This document shows, piece after piece, positions 1 to 10,467 of a DNA stretch of 64,000 nucleotides. Position numbers and translations under genes: made by a program. The notes beneath the pieces are model-generated. The model searched no databases. It was not told the DNA's origin and saw only the letters and a program-made list of their open reading frames with translations. Source of the DNA: Acidobacteriota bacterium (lineage in GTDB: Bacteria > Acidobacteriota > Terriglobia > Terriglobales > Acidobacteriaceae); NCBI GenBank assembly GCA_021846985.1, contig JAJZVX010000018.1, forward strand, positions 297-64,296, read 5' to 3'. Position 1 is the stretch's first letter. Each line of letters starts with the position of its first letter.

Positions 1-1081
1 CGTGATGCGCGCGCACGATCGGCGCCACCGGGTACGGAAAGGCCACCTTCTCCAGAATCTCCGCCCCCACCACCGGGTGGATCTTCATCTTCTCGAACTC
101 TTCCGGGGTCAGCCGCCCGGGCTTGTTGATGATGTGATCCGGCACGGCCAGCTTTCCGATGTCGTGCAGCAGCGCCGCCGCCCGCAGCGCGTCCAGCTCC
201 GTCTCGTTCAGTCCCATGTGTCTGGCGATCTCGACCGCGTAGGTGCGCACGCGGTTCAGATGCGAGTGCGTGGTGTGATCCTTGGCGTCGATGGCCAGGG
301 CCAGCCCCTCGATGGTCCGCAGATGCAGCGCGCACACCTCCTCCACATGCCGCTTCTCCGCCTGCACCTGCTGCTCCTCGATCTCCACCCGCCGCTTCTC
401 GTCTTCCAGGCGCCCCAGGTAAAGCTGGTACGAGCGGTAGATCCAGAACATCACGGGCATCACCAGCAGTGCGCTCTCCCACCCGATAAAGCGCATGGAA
501 AAGTGCACCAATCCCACAAACGCCGCGCCCACCAGATAGAACGGCAAGGACCAGAAATAGGTCTCTGACCAGATTTGACGCAGCGAGAGCCGCGCGCACA
601 GCGCAATCACCACCGCCACCAGGATCGTGTTCATCGCAAAGTAAATCAGACCCACGACAAACAGCTCCAGCGGAAGACTATGCTGCAGCAAAAGAGACGA
701 CCATCTATAGGCGAAGTAAGTACAAAAGATGGCTATACAGTTACTTGAGATATTGAAAATAATTTGTACTGGGGCCGGCTTTTGCTTGGTCTTCCAGAGG
801 CATTGCGTCAGGATGCCAGCCGCCCCAATGATCAGCGTCTCGGCCAGCGATAGCTCCATGATCCCCAGCAGCACAAACAGGAAGTGAACCGACAGGGTGC
901 TTTCCATGCCGGGCAGTCTCACCTTCATGGTCGAGGCCGCCACCGCAATTCCTATATAGCAGATAAACTTAAGCGGATCTTCGGATCTCCACCCCAGGAA
1001 CGCGAACACGAGCGCCGCCACGCCACAGGCGATTACCCCGGCAATATACATTTGGGCGCGATTTGGGATCGAAAGGTCCAT
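1..1081 (-). CDS. Membrane-anchored HD-GYP-type phosphohydrolase (probable c-di-GMP phosphodiesterase), 3' end outside window
   Basis: Manual translation from ATG at 1081: MDLSIPNRAQMYIAGVIACG..., several hydrophobic helices, a coiled coil, then LALAIDAKDHTTHSHLNRV...LLHDIGK...KIHPVVGAEILEK...IVRAHH, the HD-GYP pattern. It is not in the ORF track because it runs off the window; the GYP motif itself is not visible. Confidence 0.88.
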   Translation of the reverse strand, partial: MDLSIPNRAQMYIAGVIACGVAALVFAFLGWRSEDPLKFICYIGIAVAASTMKVRLPGMESTLSVHFLFVLLGIMELSLAETLIIGAAGILTQCLWKTKQKPAPVQIIFNISSNCIAIFCTYFAYRWSSLLLQHSLPLELFVVGLIYFAMNTILVAVVIALCARLSLRQIWSETYFWSLPFYLVGAAFVGLVHFSMRFIGWESALLVMPVMFWIYRSYQLYLGRLEDEKRRVEIEEQQVQAEKRHVEEVCALHLRTIEGLALAIDAKDHTTHSHLNRVRTYAVEIARHMGLNETELDALRAAALLHDIGKLAVPDHIINKPGRLTPEEFEKMKIHPVVGAEILEKVAFPYPVAPIVRAHH

Positions 1082-1685
1082 CGGCTCTCCGCGGAGTATC
1101 CATCCGGGGCATCCTTTAACTTACATCCAGGACTAACTCCATCGCGCAGGCGAAGCGCCCTGCCATGCGGCAAACCCTGCTTGCCGAATCGGCGGGAAAC
1201 CGAAGTAGACCGCCCATACAGCGTCGCACGTGGCGCGATGACTGCCTTGGCCCTGCCTGCGCGGATCTATAAGTTATTCTTTGCTAGACCTGCTCCAGGC
1301 TTTCTTCTCCATCCCTCATCGGCACATCGTGTCTGCTCAATAGAAACAAAGGTGGTATTGGCTCTCACCCATTCATTACCCTCTCCATCCCTGCCGTCAC
1401 ACTGTCGGTTACCCCGGATCACCCAAAAGTTGCAAGCGAGTTTCCTAAGCATTTTCCAACCCTCGCCGAAGTGTTCCTTAACTGCATGAGAAATTGCTCA
1501 TCCGGCGCCTTTTCCCATGCAGTCGGGCCCCTTCAGAGCTTTCGGGTGCCTTCGTATTCGCTCGCCTGCCCTGAAAATCCCGGCTAACCTGCGCCGCTCG
1601 CCCCGCGCTTTCCCAAAGAATCCGCCCGGCGCGTCGACGCGGCGACCCCGGCCAGCTTCCCGGAGACCCGGGAGCGATTGAAGGA

Positions 1686-3506
1686 ATGACTATGACAGAA
1701 CGCAAATCGCTTCGAAGCGCTGTGTGGGGACGTTCCGTCCTCGTCGCAGGCGCACTCCTCCTCTTCGCCAGTGCCGCCTTTGCTGGCGGCCGGGGAAAAA
1801 TGGCCCCTGATCTCGCGCGCAAGAACTCTGCCGATCAGGTCGATATCATCGTGCAGTACAACCAGGCGCCCACCTCAGCCCGCCACCAGAGAACCCTGAG
1901 TCATGGCGGAACCTTCCGGCGCAACTTGCCCTATCTGAGAGCAGGCGTTTACCGTCATGTGCCCGCTTCCGCGCTCACTGAAATCGCCAACTATCCCGAT
2001 GTGGCCCACGTCTCCATCGACCATCGAATTCATGCGGCCGGCAACACGCCCATCCTGCTCGACTACCACAACGAAACCATCGGCACGGCCGCCGCGGGCT
2101 CCTATGGTTTCGATGGCACTGGCGTCGGTGTCGCTATTATCGACAGCGGCCTTTCCTCCGTGGACGATCTTGCCAACGCGCACGTCGTTTACAGTCAGGA
2201 CTTTGTCGGCGACAACGGCGGCAGCGCTACCGACCTTTACGGCCATGGCACCCACGTTGCCGGAATCATCGCCGGCGGCGGCCAGGATTCCACCGGTCCG
2301 CAGGATTCCTACACCTTCAAGGGCATCGCCCCCGGCGTCAATCTCATCAACCTCCGCGCCCTCGACGCCAACGGCGACGGAACGGACAGCAACGTCATTG
2401 CCGCTATTCAAACCGCCATCCAGCTCAAGGATACCTACAACATCCGCATCATCAGCCTCTCGGTGGGACGGGGCGTTTTTGAGAGCTACACGCAGGACCC
2501 GCTCTGCCAGGCTGTCGAACAGGCATGGCAGGCTGGCATCCTCGTCGTTGTCGCCGCCGGAAACGAAGGCCGCAACAACTCCGCCAACAACAACGGCTAT
2601 GGAACCATCACCGCCCCCGGCAACGACCCCTACGTCCTTACCGTCGGCGCCATGAACACCCTGGGAACCGCCGATCGCACCGACGACATTCCCACCAGCT
2701 ACACCTCGCGGGGACCCACGCTCTTTGATCAGGTGGTGAAGCCCGATCTCGTGGCCCCCGGCAACCTGATCGTCTCTCTCTACCGGCCCGCTGAGACGCT
2801 GGTGCAGGAACTGCCGAGCAACATCGTCCCTCTCTCCCTTTATCAACCCAACGGTGGCGCCGTTGCCTCGCCCAGCTACTTCATCCTGAGCGGAACCAGC
2901 ATGGCCACGCCGATGGTGAGCGCCGCGGCGGCACTCATGCTGCAACAGAACCCCAGCCTGACCCCTGATCAGATCAAGGCGCGGCTCATGATTACGGCCT
3001 GGAAAAACTTCATTCCGTACAGCACGGCCACTGATCCCACCACGGGCATCACCTATAACCTCGAAGCTGATCTCTTCACGGTCGGCGCCGGCTACCTCGA
3101 CATCCAGGCGGCCTTGAACGACACCGACCTCGCTCCCGCCACTGCCGGCAGCGCCATGTCTCCCTACGCCTCTATCGACGCCAACGGCAACATCGTCATC
3201 GCCAACCGCAGTTCGTCTGCTAGCTCCATCGTCTGGGGCACCAGCATTGTCTGGGGCACCTCGGGCGTCTGGAGCAACAGCATCGTCTGGGGCACCAGCA
3301 TCGTATGGGGCACCAGCACGACGGGCGAATCCATCGTCTGGGGCACCAACACGCTGGCTCCCGACTCCATCGTCTGGGGCACCAGCATCGTCTGGGGCAC
3401 CGGCACCAGCAGTGGCCAGAGCATCGTCTGGGGCACCGGATCCAGTAGCGGCCAGAGCATCGTCTGGGGCACCGATACGGCCCTTGGCGCAACCGACCTT
3501 CCGTAG
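1686..3506 (+). CDS. Secreted S8 (subtilisin/AprX-like) serine peptidase with C-terminal tandem SIVWGT repeats
   Basis: Signal peptide and I9-like prodomain. Catalytic triad motifs GVAIIDSG, YGHGTHVAG and SGTSMATP; oxyanion motif VVAAGN. Confidence 0.95.
   Translation: MTMTERKSLRSAVWGRSVLVAGALLLFASAAFAGGRGKMAPDLARKNSADQVDIIVQYNQAPTSARHQRTLSHGGTFRRNLPYLRAGVYRHVPASALTEIANYPDVAHVSIDHRIHAAGNTPILLDYHNETIGTAAAGSYGFDGTGVGVAIIDSGLSSVDDLANAHVVYSQDFVGDNGGSATDLYGHGTHVAGIIAGGGQDSTGPQDSYTFKGIAPGVNLINLRALDANGDGTDSNVIAAIQTAIQLKDTYNIRIISLSVGRGVFESYTQDPLCQAVEQAWQAGILVVVAAGNEGRNNSANNNGYGTITAPGNDPYVLTVGAMNTLGTADRTDDIPTSYTSRGPTLFDQVVKPDLVAPGNLIVSLYRPAETLVQELPSNIVPLSLYQPNGGAVASPSYFILSGTSMATPMVSAAAALMLQQNPSLTPDQIKARLMITAWKNFIPYSTATDPTTGITYNLEADLFTVGAGYLDIQAALNDTDLAPATAGSAMSPYASIDANGNIVIANRSSSASSIVWGTSIVWGTSGVWSNSIVWGTSIVWGTSTTGESIVWGTNTLAPDSIVWGTSIVWGTGTSSGQSIVWGTGSSSGQSIVWGTDTALGATDLP
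3225..3473 (+). repeat. Coding tandem repeat: 9 exact SIVWGT hexapeptides plus 1 degenerate (SGVWSN), with short S/T/G-rich spacers
   Basis: Read directly from the translation. DNA unit is (tcc/agc)at(c/t)gt(c/a)tggggcacc, with synonymous variation. Confidence 0.97.
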
Positions 3507-3525
3507 CCCACCTTACCCCGTAGGC

Positions 3526-3562
3526 GAAGGGCCGGCCGCGTCAACAGCGCGGCCGGCCTTTC
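3526..3562 (+). terminator. Probable intrinsic terminator after the S8 gene
   Basis: GAAGGGCCGGCCGCG-tcaacag-CGCGGCCGGCCTTTC, a 15-bp stem (one G-U pair) ending in a short T run. Confidence 0.7.
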
Positions 3563-3690
3563 GTAGGACTCCCGAATCTCCGCTCCACATCCTGCCGCTT
3601 TGTTGCTATCCTCTACTCTTGCTCCCGTCGGCAGGCTCTTTCGGCCCGCTGTTGTTTGCGCGCCGCTGTCGACACATCGCCAGAAGAGAG

Positions 3691-5091
3691 ATGCAAGCCG
3701 ACCCATCCCGCTCCGGTTCCGCGCTGCCCGGTCTCCCTCCGCACCCGGATGCCGGCCCATTCCGCCTCCTCGACACCATCGCCGAAACTGGGCATGGCAT
3801 CCTCTACCGCGCCGAACGCGCCCACGACTTCACCCAGGCCGTCGCCGTCAAACTTCCGCGCCTCCAACCGTCTGACGGCGCCGTTGCGCTCCAGGCCGCC
3901 ACCGACCGCCTGCGCGACGAACAGCGCTCTCTCGCCCCGCTCCAGCACCCCGCCATCGCCGCTCTCGTCGATGCCTCCTTTGATGCCCGGCCCCTGCCCT
4001 GGCTAGCCGTCGAATACATCGAGGGTCTGCCCCTCGACCGGTATTGCGCACTCGAGCGCCTCGGCCTGCGCCAGCGCATCGCGCTGGTCTGCGCCGTTCT
4101 TGCCGCCCTGGATCACGCCCACCAGCGCCTCGTGGTGCACGGCGATCTGAACTTCAGCCGCATCCTCATTGACCGCGACGGCCTTCCCCATCTTGTTGGT
4201 TTCCGGCCCTCTCGCGAACTGCTGCACCCTCCCGGCGCTGAGGATCTTTCATTTGTCTCTCCCGAGAGCCTGGCCGGCCAGCCGCTTACCACTGCGACCG
4301 ACATCTATACCGCCGGTCTCCTGCTCTGCCTTCTGCTCACCGGCAAGCATCCTTTCGAGCAAGATCGCGGCGACTCCCGGCGCTGGGCTCACGCCATTCT
4401 CTGTTTGCCTCCTGCACGGCCCAGCTCGCTTTGCTCCGGCGCTCTCGGCCGCAGCGTTCGCGGCGATCTCGACGCCATCCTCCTGCGCGCGTTGGCCCCG
4501 CTCCCCGCCGCCCGCTACGCCACTGCCGGCGCCTTTGCCGAGGATCTGCAGGCCTTTCTCCACGGCCTGCCCGTGGAAGCACGCAACGGAGGTCCGCTCT
4601 ACCGGCTGCGGCGCTTTGCCGCGCGCAACCGGTTGCTATCCTCCGCCGCTGCGCTTCTCCTGCTCGTGCTTCTTGCTTCCGCGGCCGTGGTGGCTCGCCA
4701 GGGCATCCAGGCCCGCCGCGCCCGCATCCAGGCGCAGGCCCGCCTCCACGACATGCAGCGCCTCACCGGATCTCTCCTCGGGCAGTTCTCTTCCGATCTC
4801 GACCGTCTTCCGGGTTCCGCACCCGTTGAGAATCTCCTCCTTGCGCGCGCCGGCCAAACCATGGATCAGCTCGCCCGGCAGGCCGGCAACGACGCTGTTC
4901 TTCGTCAGGAGATCGCCCGGGAGTATCTGCGCCTGGGCCAGCTGCTGCTGCGTGAGGGCGATGCCGCCGCGGCGCAGGCCGCGGCGCGCAAGGGCCTTGA
5001 CGTCCTGCAGCCTCTGCCCGCCTCGCGGCGCGCCGCCGCGCCTGTCCAGGGCATTGCCGAGCAACTCGTCCGGCTGCGTGATGGCCGCTGA
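3691..5091 (+). CDS. Ser/Thr kinase-like pseudokinase with TM helix and short TPR-like tail
   Basis: ATG at 3691 after AGAAGAGAG. The kinase fold is recognisable (VAVK, VEYIEG, SPE, TDIY), but the Gly loop reads IAETGHG, the catalytic loop HGDLNFSR, and DFG is replaced by VGF. TM segment LLSSAAALLLLVLLASAAVVA. Confidence 0.85.
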   Translation: MQADPSRSGSALPGLPPHPDAGPFRLLDTIAETGHGILYRAERAHDFTQAVAVKLPRLQPSDGAVALQAATDRLRDEQRSLAPLQHPAIAALVDASFDARPLPWLAVEYIEGLPLDRYCALERLGLRQRIALVCAVLAALDHAHQRLVVHGDLNFSRILIDRDGLPHLVGFRPSRELLHPPGAEDLSFVSPESLAGQPLTTATDIYTAGLLLCLLLTGKHPFEQDRGDSRRWAHAILCLPPARPSSLCSGALGRSVRGDLDAILLRALAPLPAARYATAGAFAEDLQAFLHGLPVEARNGGPLYRLRRFAARNRLLSSAAALLLLVLLASAAVVARQGIQARRARIQAQARLHDMQRLTGSLLGQFSSDLDRLPGSAPVENLLLARAGQTMDQLARQAGNDAVLRQEIAREYLRLGQLLLREGDAAAAQAAARKGLDVLQPLPASRRAAAPVQGIAEQLVRLRDGR

Positions 5092-5171
5092 CAGCTCTCT
5101 CCTTCGCCTGTTTCCGGAAACTCACGCCGCAAGGGCATCCCCGAGCAGGCGTATCCTTACCCGCGCCGCCG

Positions 5172-7832
5172 TCACTGCCCCCCGTGCAGGCTCCTCAATA
5201 GACTCTCTGCGCCGCGCCGGATTCGCCTTCCGGCCTGCATTCCCAGGATCTTCGTCACCGAAGCCCGCGCCGCCGCCGTCTCATGACAGGCCGCCTGCGC
5301 CCGCGCCAGCGTCAACAAAAACTCCGGATCAGAGCCGTGAATCAGCGCCACGGCCCGCGACGAAAACGCCAGCGCCCGGCGCGGATCGCGCAGGCCCTTG
5401 ACTTGTGCGTCCAGCAGGTACATCGCCGCGCTGTCCAGATCGTCCGGCGAGGCTTCCGCGCTCTGCGCCAGTTGCAGCGAGAGCGCCAGGCCCTTACGCT
5501 CGTGCTCCTCTGCCTGCGCCGTCTGCTTCAGTCGTTCTTCCACACGAGCCCGCGCGATCAGAGTTTCCGCATAGTGCTCCTGCCAGATGCGATTGCCCGG
5601 GTCGCTCCGCAGCGCGGTGGTGAGCACTTCCGTCAGCCGCTCGTAGTCCCGCTGCGCCGCATTCCAATCCGACAGCGCCTCGTGGCTCTCGCCCTCGTCC
5701 AGGTAGATGCTCGCCATGTCCTGCTTCAGGCGCATGTCCAGCGGATCCTTTTCCGCATAAGACCCCATCACCTGCCGCGCCTGTTCCAGTTCCTTCAGGG
5801 ATTCCCTGAACTTGCCTTCGTAAAAATAGCAGTCGCCCAGTTTCTGGCGCACCACGCCCCGCAGCCGCTTGATCGAAACCGGCGCGTTTGGAATGCGCCC
5901 CAGCATCGCCAGCGCCTCTTCATATTGCTTCTGCGCCGTCTCGGGCTGCGCCTCGCTCAGCAGGTTGGCGATCTTGATGTCTCCCAAGGCAATCGACCGC
6001 ACCGCCCGCGTATCCTGCGCGTTCCGCGCCAGCGCCGCCCGGCTTTGCCCGATGGCTCGCTGGTAGTTCTCGATTGCCTTGTCCGTATCCCCAAGGCTCG
6101 ACGCTCCGTGCAATCCATACTCGTCGCCCATCAGCGCATACAGCGTCGCTGCTTCGTGCAAATCGGCGGGCTCGGCCCCTGGCGCGCTCAGCAGCTTTTC
6201 GCAAAGCGCCGCCGCCGCCCGCGCATGGTCCAGCGCCTGCTTCGTCTGCCCGTCGCCAAACTCGATCTCGCTCAGGCTGCGCTGGGCAAACTCCGCGTGC
6301 CGCAGCGCCCGGGCATCGTCCGGATGCAGGCGCAGCGCATCTTCCGCAATCGAAATCGCCCGCTCCACCGAACGGATCGCCTCCGGCGCCTCTCCCAGGT
6401 TGTCCTGGTAAGGACTGCCCATCACGTTGCCCATCCGCGTGTACGCATTCGCCAGGTCGAGCTCAAAGTCGAAATCGCCCCGCGCGTTCTGCGCCATCCC
6501 GTCCAAAAACTCCAGCGCCTCCGCCGCCACTTTGCGTTGCGTCTCCGTTGCTCCCGGCACTTCGCCCAGGCGGTCGTAGAAGTCCGTCACCAGAAATGTC
6601 GCCAGCAGCCGCACATTCCGCATCTCTTCGCGCGCCCGCAGCTCCTCGCCGCGTGCCGTCCTCGCGGCCCGCAGCGAGATGTCCGCGCCGGCCGCCAGCA
6701 CCGCCAGCAGTGCGGCGCCGGCCACCACCCGCTCCCGGTTGCGCCGCAGCAGCTTCCACGCCCGGTAAAGCCGCGCCGTCTTCCGTGCCCGCACCGGCCG
6801 ATGCTCCATCCACCGCTGCAGTTCCGCCGCCAGCTCCGTGACCGTTGCGTAGCGACCCTCCGGCTCGGCGCGCATTGCCTTGCCCGCAATGGCCCGCAGA
6901 TCCTCGTCTTCGATCTCCGCCCAATCCGCGGAGGCTGTCTCTTCGCCGGCCGCGCCGGTTCTGAAGGCGAGTGTTGTCGCCGCCGCTGGAACATGGCCCG
7001 TCAGCAGCCGGTAGAGCGCCACGCCCAGCGAATAAACATCTGACGCCGCCGTGCATGGCTCCCCCCGCCTCTGCTCCGGGCTGGCGTACTGCGGCGTAAA
7101 GGCCGCCATCGGCGCCGCCTGTTCTTCTCCGCCCGCCAGCAGAGTGGCGGCGCCAAAGTCCAGCAGCTTCACTTGCCCATCCGCGGTCACCAGCACATTC
7201 CCGGGCTTCAGGTCGCCGTGCAGAATGCGGTTCCGGTGCGCATAGGCCACCGCGTCACACAGATCCAGGAACAGGCGCGCGATCTCGCGCGCACGCAAGC
7301 CCGCGCGCTCGCAGTATTGGTCCAGCCGCTCGCCGCGGATGTACTCCATCACAAAGTACGGCTCGCCCTCATCGCTCACGCCGCCGTCGAGCAGGCGTGC
7401 AATGTGTGCATGCCGCAGCACCGCCAGCGCCCGCCGCTCCTCCAGGAAGCGCTCCTGCAACTGCGGGGAGTAGAGCCGCGTCCCCACCACCTTCAGCGCC
7501 ACCTGCTCGTCGTCGCCGCCCGCGCCCGAGGCGCGTACGGCCGCGTACACGGCCCCCATTCCGCCGCGCCCAATGAGCGCAACCACCCGGTAGCTGCCCA
7601 GCGTCCTTCCCATGCAGGGATGCGCCGCCGTCTTCCGCGCGCCTTCCGGCGGGCGTTCCACCTCTTGCGCTGAGGCCACCAGCGACAGGACATCCTCAGC
7701 CAGGCTCGCATCCTCGCCGCACCAGGCCCGCACGCTGGCCGTGCGTTCCTCCGCCGTGCCCTCCAGATCCAAAGCGCGGTGAAAGATCTCTTCCACCCGC
7801 CGCCAGCGATCCGCCGCCTCCGCGTCCATCAT
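5172..7832 (-). CDS. Hanks-type Ser/Thr protein kinase with N-terminal helical domain, TM segment and C-terminal TPR-like repeats
   Basis: Intact motifs IGRGGMGAVY, VALK, HGDLKPGN, DFG and TPQYASPE; long alpha-helical repeat C-terminus. Confidence 0.93.
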   Translation of the reverse strand: MMDAEAADRWRRVEEIFHRALDLEGTAEERTASVRAWCGEDASLAEDVLSLVASAQEVERPPEGARKTAAHPCMGRTLGSYRVVALIGRGGMGAVYAAVRASGAGGDDEQVALKVVGTRLYSPQLQERFLEERRALAVLRHAHIARLLDGGVSDEGEPYFVMEYIRGERLDQYCERAGLRAREIARLFLDLCDAVAYAHRNRILHGDLKPGNVLVTADGQVKLLDFGAATLLAGGEEQAAPMAAFTPQYASPEQRRGEPCTAASDVYSLGVALYRLLTGHVPAAATTLAFRTGAAGEETASADWAEIEDEDLRAIAGKAMRAEPEGRYATVTELAAELQRWMEHRPVRARKTARLYRAWKLLRRNRERVVAGAALLAVLAAGADISLRAARTARGEELRAREEMRNVRLLATFLVTDFYDRLGEVPGATETQRKVAAEALEFLDGMAQNARGDFDFELDLANAYTRMGNVMGSPYQDNLGEAPEAIRSVERAISIAEDALRLHPDDARALRHAEFAQRSLSEIEFGDGQTKQALDHARAAAALCEKLLSAPGAEPADLHEAATLYALMGDEYGLHGASSLGDTDKAIENYQRAIGQSRAALARNAQDTRAVRSIALGDIKIANLLSEAQPETAQKQYEEALAMLGRIPNAPVSIKRLRGVVRQKLGDCYFYEGKFRESLKELEQARQVMGSYAEKDPLDMRLKQDMASIYLDEGESHEALSDWNAAQRDYERLTEVLTTALRSDPGNRIWQEHYAETLIARARVEERLKQTAQAEEHERKGLALSLQLAQSAEASPDDLDSAAMYLLDAQVKGLRDPRRALAFSSRAVALIHGSDPEFLLTLARAQAACHETAAARASVTKILGMQAGRRIRRGAESLLRSLHGGQ

Positions 7833-8413
7833 GCCCAGCTCGCCGCACCCGACAATTCCCGGTACAGCCAGCTCCGCGCAAAGCGCAGGTCCCGCTCCGC
7901 GGTCGCCGTTGAAATTCCCAGCGCCTCCGCCGCTTCTCCGGTCGTAAAGGACAGAAAAAAGCGCATCTCAATCAGCCGCGCCTTCCGCGCATCCACGGCC
8001 TCCAGCCGCTCCAGTGCCCGGTTCAGGTCCACGATCCGCTCCGCCTCCGCCCCGATGAACGCCATGTCGTCGGAAAGTTCCATGCGGATCCACTCGCTCC
8101 CTCCGCGGTGCTTGGCCAGCCGCGCCCGCGCATAATCCGTAAGGATGTTGCGCATCAGCATGGCTGCAAACGTATAGAAGTGTTCGCGGTCGTTCCAGCT
8201 TGCTTTCTTCTGCCGCACCAGGCGCAGATACACCTCGTTCAGCAGCGCCGTTGGTTGCAGCGTATGGTCCTCCCGCTCGCGGCGCATCAGCCCCATGGCA
8301 ATCCGGTGCAGTTGTTCGTAGATCAGCGGAGCCAGGCTCTCGAAGGCCGCGGCATCGCCCTCGTGCCAGCGTTGCAGCAGTTGGGTAATTTCACCTTGCT
8401 TTTCTGGACTCAT
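7829..8413 (-). CDS. ECF sigma factor of the kinase-associated type (TIGR02999/ECF43-like)
   Basis: MSPEKQGEITQLLQRW...DHTLQPTALLNEVYLRL...HFYTFAAMLMRNILTDYAR...KHRGG. Its stop overlaps the kinase ATG (ATGA). Start placed at ATG 8413 rather than 8557. Confidence 0.93.
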   Translation of the reverse strand: MSPEKQGEITQLLQRWHEGDAAAFESLAPLIYEQLHRIAMGLMRREREDHTLQPTALLNEVYLRLVRQKKASWNDREHFYTFAAMLMRNILTDYARARLAKHRGGSEWIRMELSDDMAFIGAEAERIVDLNRALERLEAVDARKARLIEMRFFLSFTTGEAAEALGISTATAERDLRFARSWLYRELSGAASWA

Positions 8414-8612
8414 GGCGGGGTTTTGAGTGCCTTTAGTATGCAGGAATCCGGCTGGCCTTGCCAAAGCCTTTGTTGCGGCTTGCTTCCCTTTGACCAAAAA
8501 CCTCTTCCCCGTGAGGGAGTTTTCCCGCTTTTGCCGCTGTACTGGGCAAACGGCCACGCCGCCACCCCCGGCGGCGAGGCGTCAACGTCAGGCGCTGGGA
8601 GTGAGAAATCAC

Positions 8613-9618: not shown

Positions 9619-10467
9619 ATGCAAACCATCGCGCAGGCAGCGCCGGCCCAAGCATCGAATCGCCCCAAAGTCTATCTTCCGCGCGAGCACGGGGCTACCG
9701 CGATGCTCCTCACGCCCATCCTCGGGGTCGCCATCCTAGCCCGGGCCTGGCATTGGAGCGAGCTGGCAGTCCCCATGGCGGCCTTTGCCGCCATGGCGGC
9801 AAAGGATCCTGCCGTCCTGCTGGTGCGCCAGCAGTTTGTGTGGAAGCGCAAAAGTCCCGAGTCCTCAGGCGCCCTGCGATGGCTCCTGGGGTGGATCGCT
9901 CTACTCATTGCCAGCGTCTCCGTCCTGCTGGTCACTTGGCCGCTCGATGCTTTTCTGGCCATCGGCGCAGGCGTTGCCGCCTTTGGCTGCGTGGCAATCG
10001 CCGTCAATCTCGGAAATCGCCAGCGTTCGACACTCTTCCAGATTGTCAGCGCCGCGGCGCTCACTTCCACATCCCTGGCAACATGCCTCTCCGCTACGGG
10101 AACCGTCGCGCCCTGGTGCTGGTGGTTCTGGGCCTTGATCGCGATGCAAGCCAGCGCCGGAATCCTCGTGGTTCACGCCCGCCTCGATGCCCGCATTGCT
10201 CTCCGCAAGGCCGCGGCCGCAAGCCGGCACTATCGCTACGCGGCCCAGGCAGTTCTGGCCGTGCTCCTGTGCGCGGCGGTCGTCGCCATCCTCCTCAGGC
10301 ATGCCTCAATCGCGCTGGCACTGGCGCTGGCCGTGGCTGGCTACGCCTATGACCTGGCTCGGCAGAACCGTCCCGAATCGCTTCAAATGCCGCTCAAAAC
10401 AGTGGGACAGCAGGCGCTCATGCTTTCGGCCCTCTATTCCCTTTTGCTGATCGCGGGCCTCTGGTAA
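9619..10467 (+). CDS. YwiC-like membrane protein
   Basis: LPREHGATAMLLTP motif and multiple TM helices; ATG 9619 chosen as start. Confidence 0.8.
   Translation: MQTIAQAAPAQASNRPKVYLPREHGATAMLLTPILGVAILARAWHWSELAVPMAAFAAMAAKDPAVLLVRQQFVWKRKSPESSGALRWLLGWIALLIASVSVLLVTWPLDAFLAIGAGVAAFGCVAIAVNLGNRQRSTLFQIVSAAALTSTSLATCLSATGTVAPWCWWFWALIAMQASAGILVVHARLDARIALRKAAAASRHYRYAAQAVLAVLLCAAVVAILLRHASIALALALAVAGYAYDLARQNRPESLQMPLKTVGQQALMLSALYSLLLIAGLW

Follow-up and report, generated by a model that had tools for sequence, protein, structure and literature searches.

At the left end of the window, the 64-kb stretch of acidobacterial DNA analyzed here, a gene for a secreted S8 protease with a C-terminal repeat tail faces away from a gene for a membrane protein with an HD-GYP domain. 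This arrangement raises the question of whether the two products act together, with the protease or its repeats serving as an input to c-di-GMP signaling. Embedded in the membrane, MASE domains often serve c-di-GMP enzymes and kinases as inputs, and the signals they detect are largely not known. The pairing described below recurs across phyla, which points to an undescribed signaling module and offers a first clue to what the MASE9 domain detects.

The secreted subtilase

The divergent orientation that had been noted is borne out by the sequence, the two start codons being separated by a 604-bp spacer (positions 1082 to 1685). On the forward strand, the S8 subtilase gene occupies 1686 to 3506 and encodes a secreted pro-subtilase of 606 amino acids with a C-terminal hexapeptide repeat array; its ATG at 1686 is preceded 4 nt upstream by AAGGA, and the stop codon lies at 3504 to 3506. 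As read from the sequence, a Sec-type signal peptide is predicted at residues 1 to 33 (1686 to 1784), ending in SAAFA with cleavage before GG. It is followed by an N-terminal propeptide of the pro-subtilisin (I9-like) type (1785 to 2060), assigned from its confident AlphaFold model and from PDB fold matches. The top matches are unprocessed pro-subtilases, including pro-Tk-SP and pro-subtilisin E, with E-values from 1e-30 to 1e-26. Peptidase_S8 (PF00082) is matched at residues 144 to 446 with 178.7 bits (cut-off, 21.8). Within the catalytic domain (2115 to 3023), delimited by Pfam and homologue conservation, the triad and oxyanion residues D153, H187, N293, and S405 show no substitution in any of 115 close homologues or of the 78 homologues taken from the fetched loci. 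Judged by the retention of these residues in all 78, the protease is predicted to be active. A look-up of the exact protein sequence returned no record, and a transcript search found no RNA run containing the sequence.

The membrane sensor enzyme

The partner gene lies on the reverse strand at positions 2 to 1081. It starts with an ATG at 1081, has GGAGAG upstream, and leaves the left edge of the window at base 2, so that the first 360 amino acids are visible in translation. A contig from run X4 reaches 771 nt beyond this edge. Pfam identifies MASE9, HD_5, and HD in this part. The MASE9 integral-membrane domain (residues 4 to 236; 374 to 1072) was assigned with PF20972 (29.2 bits; cut-off, 24.3), a custom HMM (316.6 bits), and an AlphaFold model with pLDDT mostly between 80 and 95 and two lower blocks of 10 residues. 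MASE9 is described as having eight membrane segments, two of which make a short hairpin within the membrane; the model has seven to eight helices, some broken, a short beta hairpin at residues 53 to 64, and external loops that are short only. MASE9 was defined by Galperin and Chou, who, in the passages that treat the domain, propose ligand binding within the membrane and state that its ligand and partner are not known (bioRxiv 10.1101/2021.11.05.467447). The closest PDB folds to our MASE9 model are S components of ECF transporters, with TM-scores of 0.5 to 0.63 by target and a Foldseek probability of ~1 at weak E-values (0.04 to 0.9).

A single long helix (residues 201 to 266 in the AlphaFold model) leaves the membrane, and its cytoplasmic part (residues 237 to 266; 284 to 373) joins MASE9 to the N-terminal two-thirds of an HD-GYP domain (residues 264 to 360; 2 to 290). 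The latter was recognized from Pfam HD_5 and HD (HD_5 scoring 58.2 bits on the truncated domain), the consensus of an alignment (A3), and a near-identical protein, P0121. HDIGK is present at residues 306 to 310; of the HHExxDGxGYP motif, only the HH is visible before the window stops, short of GYP. P0121, which is 99% identical to the window sensor, reads on as HHERWNGEGYPDGL and carries HHERWNGEGYP. Orthologues of ~830 to 900 amino acids extend further into GAF and GGDEF domains (for example, in loci L001, L028, L017, L029, and L044), the latter containing RxxD I-sites. HDIGK and HHExx[DN]GxGYP are kept in 12 of 12 orthologues, 11 of which have GGDEF and one AGDEF. From these motifs, the most likely identity of the window sensor is a bifunctional enzyme of the HD-GYP-GAF-GGDEF type and not a phosphodiesterase alone. 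The original prediction of a multi-TM region, a coiled coil, and an HD-GYP domain thus holds insofar as the membrane region is MASE9 and the long helix at residues 201 to 266 is the "coiled coil," but HD-GYP is only part of the output, to which orthologues add GAF-GGDEF.

Linkage of S8 and MASE9-like genes

Eighty loci, picked solely by similarity to the S8 protein, were used to measure linkage. Within them, 44 of 51 MASE9-like ORFs lie no more than 1 kb from the S8 gene, and none was found in the ~860 kb of remaining flank (binomial P = 1e-32, a value that ignores the relatedness of the loci). We use "MASE9-like" since some distant partners match the custom HMM only and not Pfam PF20972. The predicted enrichment of c-di-GMP membrane proteins beside repeat-tailed S8 genes is therefore clear. 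In the reverse direction, each of the six relatives of the window sensor that were looked up shares its cluster with an S8 gene, whole or as a remnant. The genes are paired in at least three layouts (divergent, directly downstream, and behind an ABC operon), and paired loci occur in the Acidobacteriota classes Terriglobia, Vicinamibacteria, and Blastocatellia, with single loci from three further phyla labeled Roseiflexaceae, Actinomycetes, and Saccharimonadales; many of the sampled loci come from related Terriglobia. In approximately 45% of the S8 loci a MASE9-like neighbor is lacking, which counts against reading the pair as a module. Taken together, these comparisons give good support to the divergent S8-sensor pair as a real, conserved functional unit.

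The outputs fused to the MASE9-like domain range from HD-GYP-GAF-GGDEF, HD-GYP, and GGDEF-EAL to HisKA-HATPase-REC (a hybrid histidine kinase) or none, the short stand-alone MASE9-like proteins carrying no NCBIfam name. As the output varies, the conserved partner of S8 is the membrane domain and not HD-GYP as such. A frequent third component of the clusters is an Opp/Nik-type ABC importer with an SBP_bac_5 protein (L001, L002, L005, L014-L018, L021, L028, L083-L087, and L089), whose binding protein is equally near nickel/opine and peptide binders and falls far under every curated cut-off. A PilZ sigma-54 activator is added in one subclade, and M28/M20 peptidases adjoin some S8 paralogues. Clusters of the L085 type have a TGGC-N8-[GT]TGCA site upstream of S8. 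Of the proposed peptide-to-c-di-GMP system, the conserved pair has stood up to comparison, but the partner is better described as a MASE9-like domain with varied outputs, often accompanied by the ABC importer and, in that one subclade, by the PilZ activator. Elsewhere within the 64-kb window there is no second MASE9, S8, ABC, or PilZ-activator gene. That the window includes neither the ABC genes nor the GAF-GGDEF portion of the sensor counts against the module. Downstream, at 3700 to 8557, kinase-like genes and an ECF sigma factor were considered as module members and rejected, as they are not conserved neighbors.

Comparison of the intergenic spacers reveals an element upstream of S8 (1409 to 1510, forward strand) that is common to L001, L002, and both S8 genes of L083 and is a candidate operator or leader RNA. 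It contains the palindrome ATGAG-N6-CTCAT at 1486 to 1501, and its hairpin shows no compensatory changes. An Rfam scan of positions 1 to 5000 at a permissive E-value detected no c-di-GMP riboswitch or other Rfam RNA in 1082 to 1685, no sigma-54 site was found in the spacer, and simple scans for a sigma-70 promoter and a terminator gave no match inside it.

Selection on the repeat tail

The tail array (residues 514 to 596; 3225 to 3473, forward strand) is evident from the sequence and recurs family-wide. In the window it consists of nine SIVWGT units and one SGVWSN, separated by the spacers STTGE, NTLAPD, GTSSGQ, and GSSSGQ. When copies within one gene are compared, the repeat cores have pS values of 0.45 to 0.85 against pN values of 0.02 to 0.2, whereas pN in the spacers reaches 0.46 to 0.71. 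This pattern indicates purifying selection acting on the cores copy by copy, with the spacers left to drift. As the array in the window is itself young at the DNA level (pS, 0.17), the selection signal comes from its relatives. In a co-occurring strain, 12 tail sites differ, of which 11 are synonymous and one lies in a spacer. AlphaFold, which can fail on repeats, assigns the tail a pLDDT of 30 to 40 and no regular fold. By its substitution pattern and its model, then, the tail behaves like a functional peptide array.

Other descriptions of the tail were considered. A folded beta-helix, a left-handed Hexapep structure, or a known repeat family was rejected, as there is neither a Pfam match nor an AlphaFold fold. 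A profile search with the tail, whose word-based method favored short fragments, recovered only S8 gene fragments; among these matches the array is thus confined to this S8 family, and the idea of a general anchor carried by other proteins too was rejected. The two stand-alone repeat ORFs on long contigs that were checked are both pieces of frameshifted S8 genes. The idea that L083 carries two "pherotypes" in its pair of S8 copies was dropped, the assembly being too rich in frameshifts.

Two properties of the tail weigh against its acting as a peptide signal. First, the core, with its two hydrophobic residues, Trp, and Gly, is kept across Terriglobia and is not species specific, unlike typical pheromones, with the repeat core type tracking phylogeny in the sampled loci. 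Second, inspection of the tail spacers revealed no obvious processing sites, which counts against peptide release.

A possible signaling module and its alternatives

We tentatively read the two genes, at a little under an even chance, as the visible part of a conserved signaling module in which the protease tail is the input to the MASE9 sensor. A MASE9 ligand consisting of the tail, or of peptides cut from it, would fit the way selection acts on the repeats, the lack of a fold in the tail, and the resemblance of MASE9 to S components. The protease would be exported via Sec and then remove its own propeptide, leaving the unfolded tail as the sensor input. It might cut the tail into short hydrophobic peptides (for instance after Trp, yielding GTSIVW-like hexapeptides), or the tail might remain attached as a multivalent ligand. 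In either case the ligand would be held by the S-component-like pocket of MASE9 inside the membrane, and binding would shift the balance between degradation of c-di-GMP by HD-GYP and its synthesis by GGDEF. In sister clusters, the ABC importer may take in the peptides, and the PilZ sigma-54 activator may return the c-di-GMP signal to the promoter of the protease gene. A broader version, possible though doubtful, is that of a widespread unrecognized system, in which a subtilase carries its own tandem hexapeptide signal, the repeats, released or tethered, would be the natural MASE9 ligands that set c-di-GMP turnover or histidine-kinase output, and the Opp-like importer and PilZ sigma-54 activator would close the loop.

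The clusters also suggest nutrient-peptide sensing, which we regard as unlikely: the protease would digest external proteins, the ABC importer would take up the products, MASE9 would sense these products or the state of the membrane, and the tail would simply tether the enzyme to the envelope or matrix. Lactococcal PrtP with Opp and the Myxococcus A-signal are models for such a role. The co-occurrence of S8 with the SBP_bac_5 importer, the M28/M20 peptidases beside some S8 paralogues, and a core motif that is conserved and not strain specific are all in keeping with it, but it leaves unexplained the identical cores amid drifting spacers, the appearance of the array on this S8 family only, and a tail with no predicted fold. 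Moreover, nutrient sensing would not call for the same particular membrane domain in different phyla and with different outputs.

Information might also flow from the inside out, in the manner of LapD/LapG, with the c-di-GMP state of the cytoplasmic HD-GYP-GAF-GGDEF region acting through MASE9 to capture or release the protease by its tail and so set its activity or location. Such control is improbable: a membrane c-di-GMP protein is indeed encoded beside an exported protease, its GGDEF relatives have RxxD I-sites, and stand-alone MASE9-like proteins could serve as docks, but the partners include histidine kinases and catalytically intact enzymes instead of degenerate receptor domains, the external loops of MASE9 are short only, and the protease is of the S8 type and not a LapG-type cysteine protease. 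That the adjacency is functionally meaningless, with only gene order conserved among relatives, is very improbable. The many loci from related Terriglobia would favor it, but pairing in several layouts and phyla and with at least four output architectures, the zero count of MASE9-like genes elsewhere in the flanks, and the 6/6 reverse test weigh strongly against it.

Under the reading that we tentatively favor, a tail-fed MASE9 module, a protease with a peptide array under selection becomes a concrete candidate input, provided by a conserved genomic partner, and natural variants with different cores and outputs are available for comparison. If true, MASE9 domains would gain their first assigned class of ligand, and should the tail be processed, the fusion of a protease to its own multicopy signal would be a new build of peptide signaling. 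Acidobacteriota of soil and acid mines are abundant and little studied, and the module suggests a way in which proteolysis outside the cell, or peptide cues, might be linked to their biofilm and lifestyle choices.

Comparison with known systems

Pfam and NCBIfam scans of both proteins and their neighbors identified none of the agr families (AgrB, AgrD, and AgrC/AgrA). Closest in fold to the MASE9 model are the ECF S components (RibU, FolT, BioY, ThiT, and NikM/CbiM-like), small helical membrane proteins with high affinity for the small ligands they bind. The E-values are weak, however, with no sequence similarity detected; MASE9 is fused to signaling outputs, and EcfT/EcfA were not noticed among the genes of the loci. 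As in LapD/LapG, an inner-membrane c-di-GMP protein is encoded adjoining an exported protease. LapG is a cysteine protease and LapD a GGDEF-EAL receptor that is degenerate and has a periplasmic domain, whereas here the protease is S8 and the catalytic motifs of the sensor are intact, placing the pair outside the LapD/LapG type. Lactococcal PrtP/Opp likewise brings together an envelope S8 protease and an oligopeptide-type ABC importer, in a nutritional system that lacks a sensor partner and a hexapeptide array.

In Bacillus Phr/Rap and other RRNPP systems, S8 proteases (subtilisin, Epr, and Vpr) free signals of 5 to 6 residues, which Opp imports. An S8 protease, units of six residues, and, in sister clusters, an Opp-like importer resemble this arrangement; in contrast, the putative peptides are here fused in tandem to the protease, and a membrane domain coupled to c-di-GMP is the candidate receptor. 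Neither an RRNPP-type small propeptide gene nor a cytoplasmic TPR receptor was noticed among the called genes and ORFs checked beside the S8, sensor, and ABC operon genes. Yeast alpha-factor, in which tandem identical cores with variable spacers are cut out by the S8-family protease Kex2, shares with the tail its near-identical tandem cores, variable spacers, and S8-family enzyme. It differs in being eukaryotic, in having separate precursor and protease, and in its dibasic sites and GPCR receptor.

Our literature search found no paper describing an S8/MASE9 module. The nearest described proteins are Galperin and Chou's MASE9-HD-GYP-GAF-GGDEF proteins, which have the same membrane domain and an architecture shared by the orthologues of the window sensor (bioRxiv 10.1101/2021.11.05.467447). 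Compared with the proteins in their MASE9 passages, the MASE9-like domains found here also stand alone or carry kinase or GGDEF-EAL outputs; and whereas those passages name no genomic partner, the domain is here systematically linked to a repeat-tailed S8 protease.

A subtilase gene divergent from a MASE9-HD-GYP gene

The S8 gene (1686-3506, + strand) encodes a subtilase of 606 aa, preceded by a Shine-Dalgarno-like AAGGA, with a putative Sec-type signal peptide that ends ...SAAFA before GG and a Peptidase_S8 domain at aa 144-446 (Pfam, 178.7 bits). Its propeptide and catalytic domain gave a confident AlphaFold model, whose top PDB hits are pro-subtilases in unprocessed form (pro-Tk-SP, pro-subtilisin E and pro-Tk-subtilisin), and the catalytic residues are retained in 78 of 78 homologues. 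Relatives of the protein number in the thousands; the top 120 are 54-63% identical and 507-672 aa long, and every named protein among them comes from Terriglobales.

Across exactly 604 bp, the sensor gene runs divergently from 1081 (- strand) past the left edge of the window, with that part of the module lying outside. The 360 aa visible comprise a MASE9 membrane domain (29.2 bits against a Pfam cut-off of 24.3), a single long helix (aa 201-266) and about two thirds of an HD/HD_5 domain, the window ending on 'HH', the first two residues of the HHExxDGxGYP motif. P0121, a protein 99% identical to the sensor, continues from there as HHERWNGEGYPDGL. Domains, tail, spacer and this continuation together confirm the divergent pair of the original prediction, which took it for a candidate peptide-to-c-di-GMP signalling system. 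Among 12 long MASE9 partners checked in Terriglobia, HDIGK and HHExx[DN]GxGYP are present in all 12, GGDEF in 11 with AGDEF in the other, and the RxxD site is kept by most. By orthology, therefore, the window sensor is most likely bifunctional in c-di-GMP turnover, with its front third visible. Its description as an HD-GYP protein therefore holds for the domain itself and needs widening for the enzyme. Neither protein is unusual for its known family, S8 in one case and MASE9-HD-GYP(-GAF-GGDEF) in the other.

Near-identical sequence to window 1-3800 occurs in 15 public runs (X1-X15) from mine-drainage, hot-spring and sediment metagenomes, one run carrying an extra 7 nt after position 3657, past the stop codon of S8. 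Beyond the S8 gene lies a kinase-like gene (3700-5091, +), not conserved beside S8, for a protein with one membrane segment; with HGDLN replacing HRDLK and VGF at the DFG place, it is probably a pseudokinase. At 5172-8557 (-), an 886-aa Ser/Thr kinase with TPR repeats and an ECF sigma factor (Sigma70_ECF type, PF07638) encoded upstream overlap by 4 nt and so are probably co-transcribed; among the fetched loci, relatives of the two occur only in L060 (31-40% identity), likewise close to an S8 gene.

S8 genes are linked to MASE9-like genes

With the S8 alignment as the only seed and one genome scanned per species, 80 loci were obtained, mostly from metagenome-assembled genomes and some frameshifted, with ORFs called as the longest ORF. 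They were searched with a profile derived from the MASE9 domain of the window and the initial matches to it, so that distant partners are 'MASE9-like' by this profile, not by Pfam. The predicted neighbourhood enrichment is borne out, as a MASE9-like gene adjoins S8 in 44 of the 80 loci. Of 51 MASE9-like ORFs, 44 lie at <=1 kb from S8, four at 1-2 kb and three at 4-5 kb with only an ABC operon between, and none in the remaining ~860 kb of flank (binomial P about 1e-32, ignoring kinship between loci). The independence of the linkage is better shown by its variety than by this P value: the MASE9-like gene may lie upstream in divergent orientation (the window's own arrangement), follow S8 directly in the same orientation, or sit beyond an ABC operon; architectures vary as well; and the linked loci span Terriglobia (including Bryobacterales), Vicinamibacterales and Blastocatellia/Pyrinomonadaceae/Chloracidobacterium, plus single loci labelled Roseiflexaceae, Actinomycetes and Saccharimonadales. 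In the reverse direction, each of the six homologues of the window sensor that were looked up (55-70% identical) clusters with an S8 gene, one of them with a C-terminal S8 remnant instead.

At L081 7096-7761, just upstream of a MASE9-HD-GYP gene, an S8 gene is represented by its C-terminal third alone, with a 12-unit SVLWG array; this is either a remnant, a gene for the tail only, or an artefact of assembly. Two S8 paralogues (L004 6155-9475, -; L011 11774-16372, +) have no MASE9-like neighbour and stand beside large Reg_prop/Y_Y_Y beta-propeller sensor kinases.

The membrane domain is the conserved partner

What is conserved beside S8 is the membrane domain, and its outputs vary. HD-GYP-GAF-GGDEF is the commonest form in Terriglobia; others are HD-GYP or HD-GYP-GAF, (PAS-)GGDEF-EAL, (PAS-)HisKA-HATPase-REC, and GGDEF plus HD-GYP (L062 and L080, the latter with GGDEF preceding the Pfam-detected MASE9 stretch). 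Stand-alone forms of 231-260 aa start 3-46 bp past the S8 stop codon (L005 11800-12558, L013 11734-12453, L020 7205-7924, L021 11809-12561, L024 11734-12450, L032 1249-1968 and L085 16852-17589). These matched no Pfam family (one scanned) and no NCBIfam family (four scanned), and share a C-terminal ending of the ...(A)MAAG(A)G type. A library of 1.84 billion representative proteins contains 2,219 MASE9 relatives at E <= 0.001, including stand-alone, tandem-double and output-fused forms; many are proteins of ~460 aa (P0242-P0249 and others) with two tandem copies and no output domain.

A 2021 paper defined MASE9 as a promiscuous sensor in the membrane, with an unknown ligand that was proposed to bind within the membrane (bioRxiv 10.1101/2021.11.05.467447). 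The AlphaFold model of the window's domain (374-1072, -; pLDDT mostly 80-95) most closely resembles S components of ECF transporters (RibU, FolT, BioY, ThiT and NikM/CbiM-like), with TM-scores by target of 0.5-0.63 and a Foldseek probability of about 1, yet E-values of only 0.04-0.9. The modelled fold suggests, not conclusively, a small-ligand pocket; we found no mention of this resemblance in the literature.

Cores of the hexapeptide tail are held by selection

The final 93 residues of the window S8 contain nine exact SIVWGT units and one SGVWSN, some directly adjoining and others separated by 5-6 residues; AlphaFold gives this tail no fold (pLDDT 30-40). The repeat tail is a feature of this S8 family. 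All of the best 120 relatives end in arrays of a motif of two hydrophobic residues followed by Trp and Gly/Ser/Ala in that order (ILWGT, VIWGG, VMWGS, IAWGT, LTWGA and others), except P0107, whose sequence stops ahead of the array. Remoter members retain the array with different cores: TIVWTN; GVAIGD, GVVLGD, GVLVGD, GVVMGD, GVVISD and AILASD; or GYLWSD, RASWS and DITWE. A tail-profile search matched only short proteins without other Pfam domains, and those examined are pieces of S8 genes; the array thus appears restricted to this protease family.

Within single genes, core copies differ greatly at synonymous sites (pS about 0.45-0.85) and little at non-synonymous ones (pN about 0.02-0.2), as in the 13 GLVWSN units of L051 (0.56/0.02) and the cores of L041 (0.65/0.05). 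Where comparable, spacers have pN of 0.46-0.71 in arrays of Trp type and 0.14 in L042, whose array is of GVVMGD type. Cores are therefore held by selection and spacers are mostly free, as expected of multi-copy peptide precursors or a multivalent linear motif; an array duplicated recently would not be expected to show this pattern, which is also unusual for a structural repeat. The exception is the window's own array, which at pS 0.17 is young or homogenized. A co-occurring strain variant in a sediment metagenome has 12 listed differences from the window within 3231-3401, 11 of them synonymous and one altering a spacer residue. Assemblies of the X1-X15 runs break within the array (3227-3401).

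Importer, activator and upstream elements

In L001, whose genome is the closest relative (60% identity in S8), two permease genes and genes for an SBP_bac_5 binding protein and an ATPase come after the sensor gene in the same orientation, and all of them together are divergent from S8. Such ABC sets are also linked in L002, L005, L014-L018, L021, L028, L083-L087 and L089, and L041, L046 and L065 have weaker SBP_bac_5 genes in divergent orientation to S8. The nearest models of the binding protein are NikA, Opp and CntA, yet scores fall far under their cut-offs, so a peptide importer is plausible rather than established.

In one subclade the cluster also encodes a PilZ-domain sigma-54 activator, and five loci of this subclade share a conserved -24/-12-like site, TGGC-N8-[GT]TGCA, located 45-85 nt ahead of S8 (L085 14942, L015 9887, and matching sites in L005, L021 and L018). 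This suggests c-di-GMP-dependent transcription of the protease gene and may constitute a feedback loop; the window spacer contains no site of this type. Instances of a conserved ~100-nt element lie at window 1409-1510 (core 1484-1503), L001 ~9736-9830, L002 ~9720-9815 and L083 ~1487-1580 (+) and ~7379-7285 (-), about 150-430 nt before the S8 start codon in the window's closest relatives. It contains the palindrome ATGAG-N6-CTCAT and a CTTAAGG..CTTAG motif, matches no Rfam family, and has a hairpin that lacks compensatory changes; an operator or a leader RNA is conceivable.

A possible signalling route and its alternatives

From this comparative and predicted evidence we tentatively favor a route in which the exported, self-activating subtilase would present its hexapeptide array or release it by cleavage, MASE9 would bind and perceive it, and the balance of c-di-GMP synthesis and degradation would be set accordingly, with importer and PilZ activator, where present, serving uptake and feedback. 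The conserved core motif argues against strain-specific pheromones. Less probable is that peptides from external protein are sensed and the tail is a tether. Inside-out control of the protease, as with LapD/LapG, is unlikely, as the kinase-output variants and intact enzymes favor outside-in signaling. That the synteny has no meaning is scarcely credible.

We found no description of the S8/MASE9 pairing in the literature searched. In part, the module resembles Phr/Opp signaling in its S8 protease, putative 5-6-mer peptides and Opp-like importer, alpha-factor/Kex2 in its tandem cores with spacers, and LapD/LapG in placing a c-di-GMP membrane protein beside a protease, but it lacks the defining features of all three. 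We rate it as a variant of a known theme, a putative protease-dependent peptide input to a second-messenger sensor, with a considerable likelihood that it forms a kind of system of its own.
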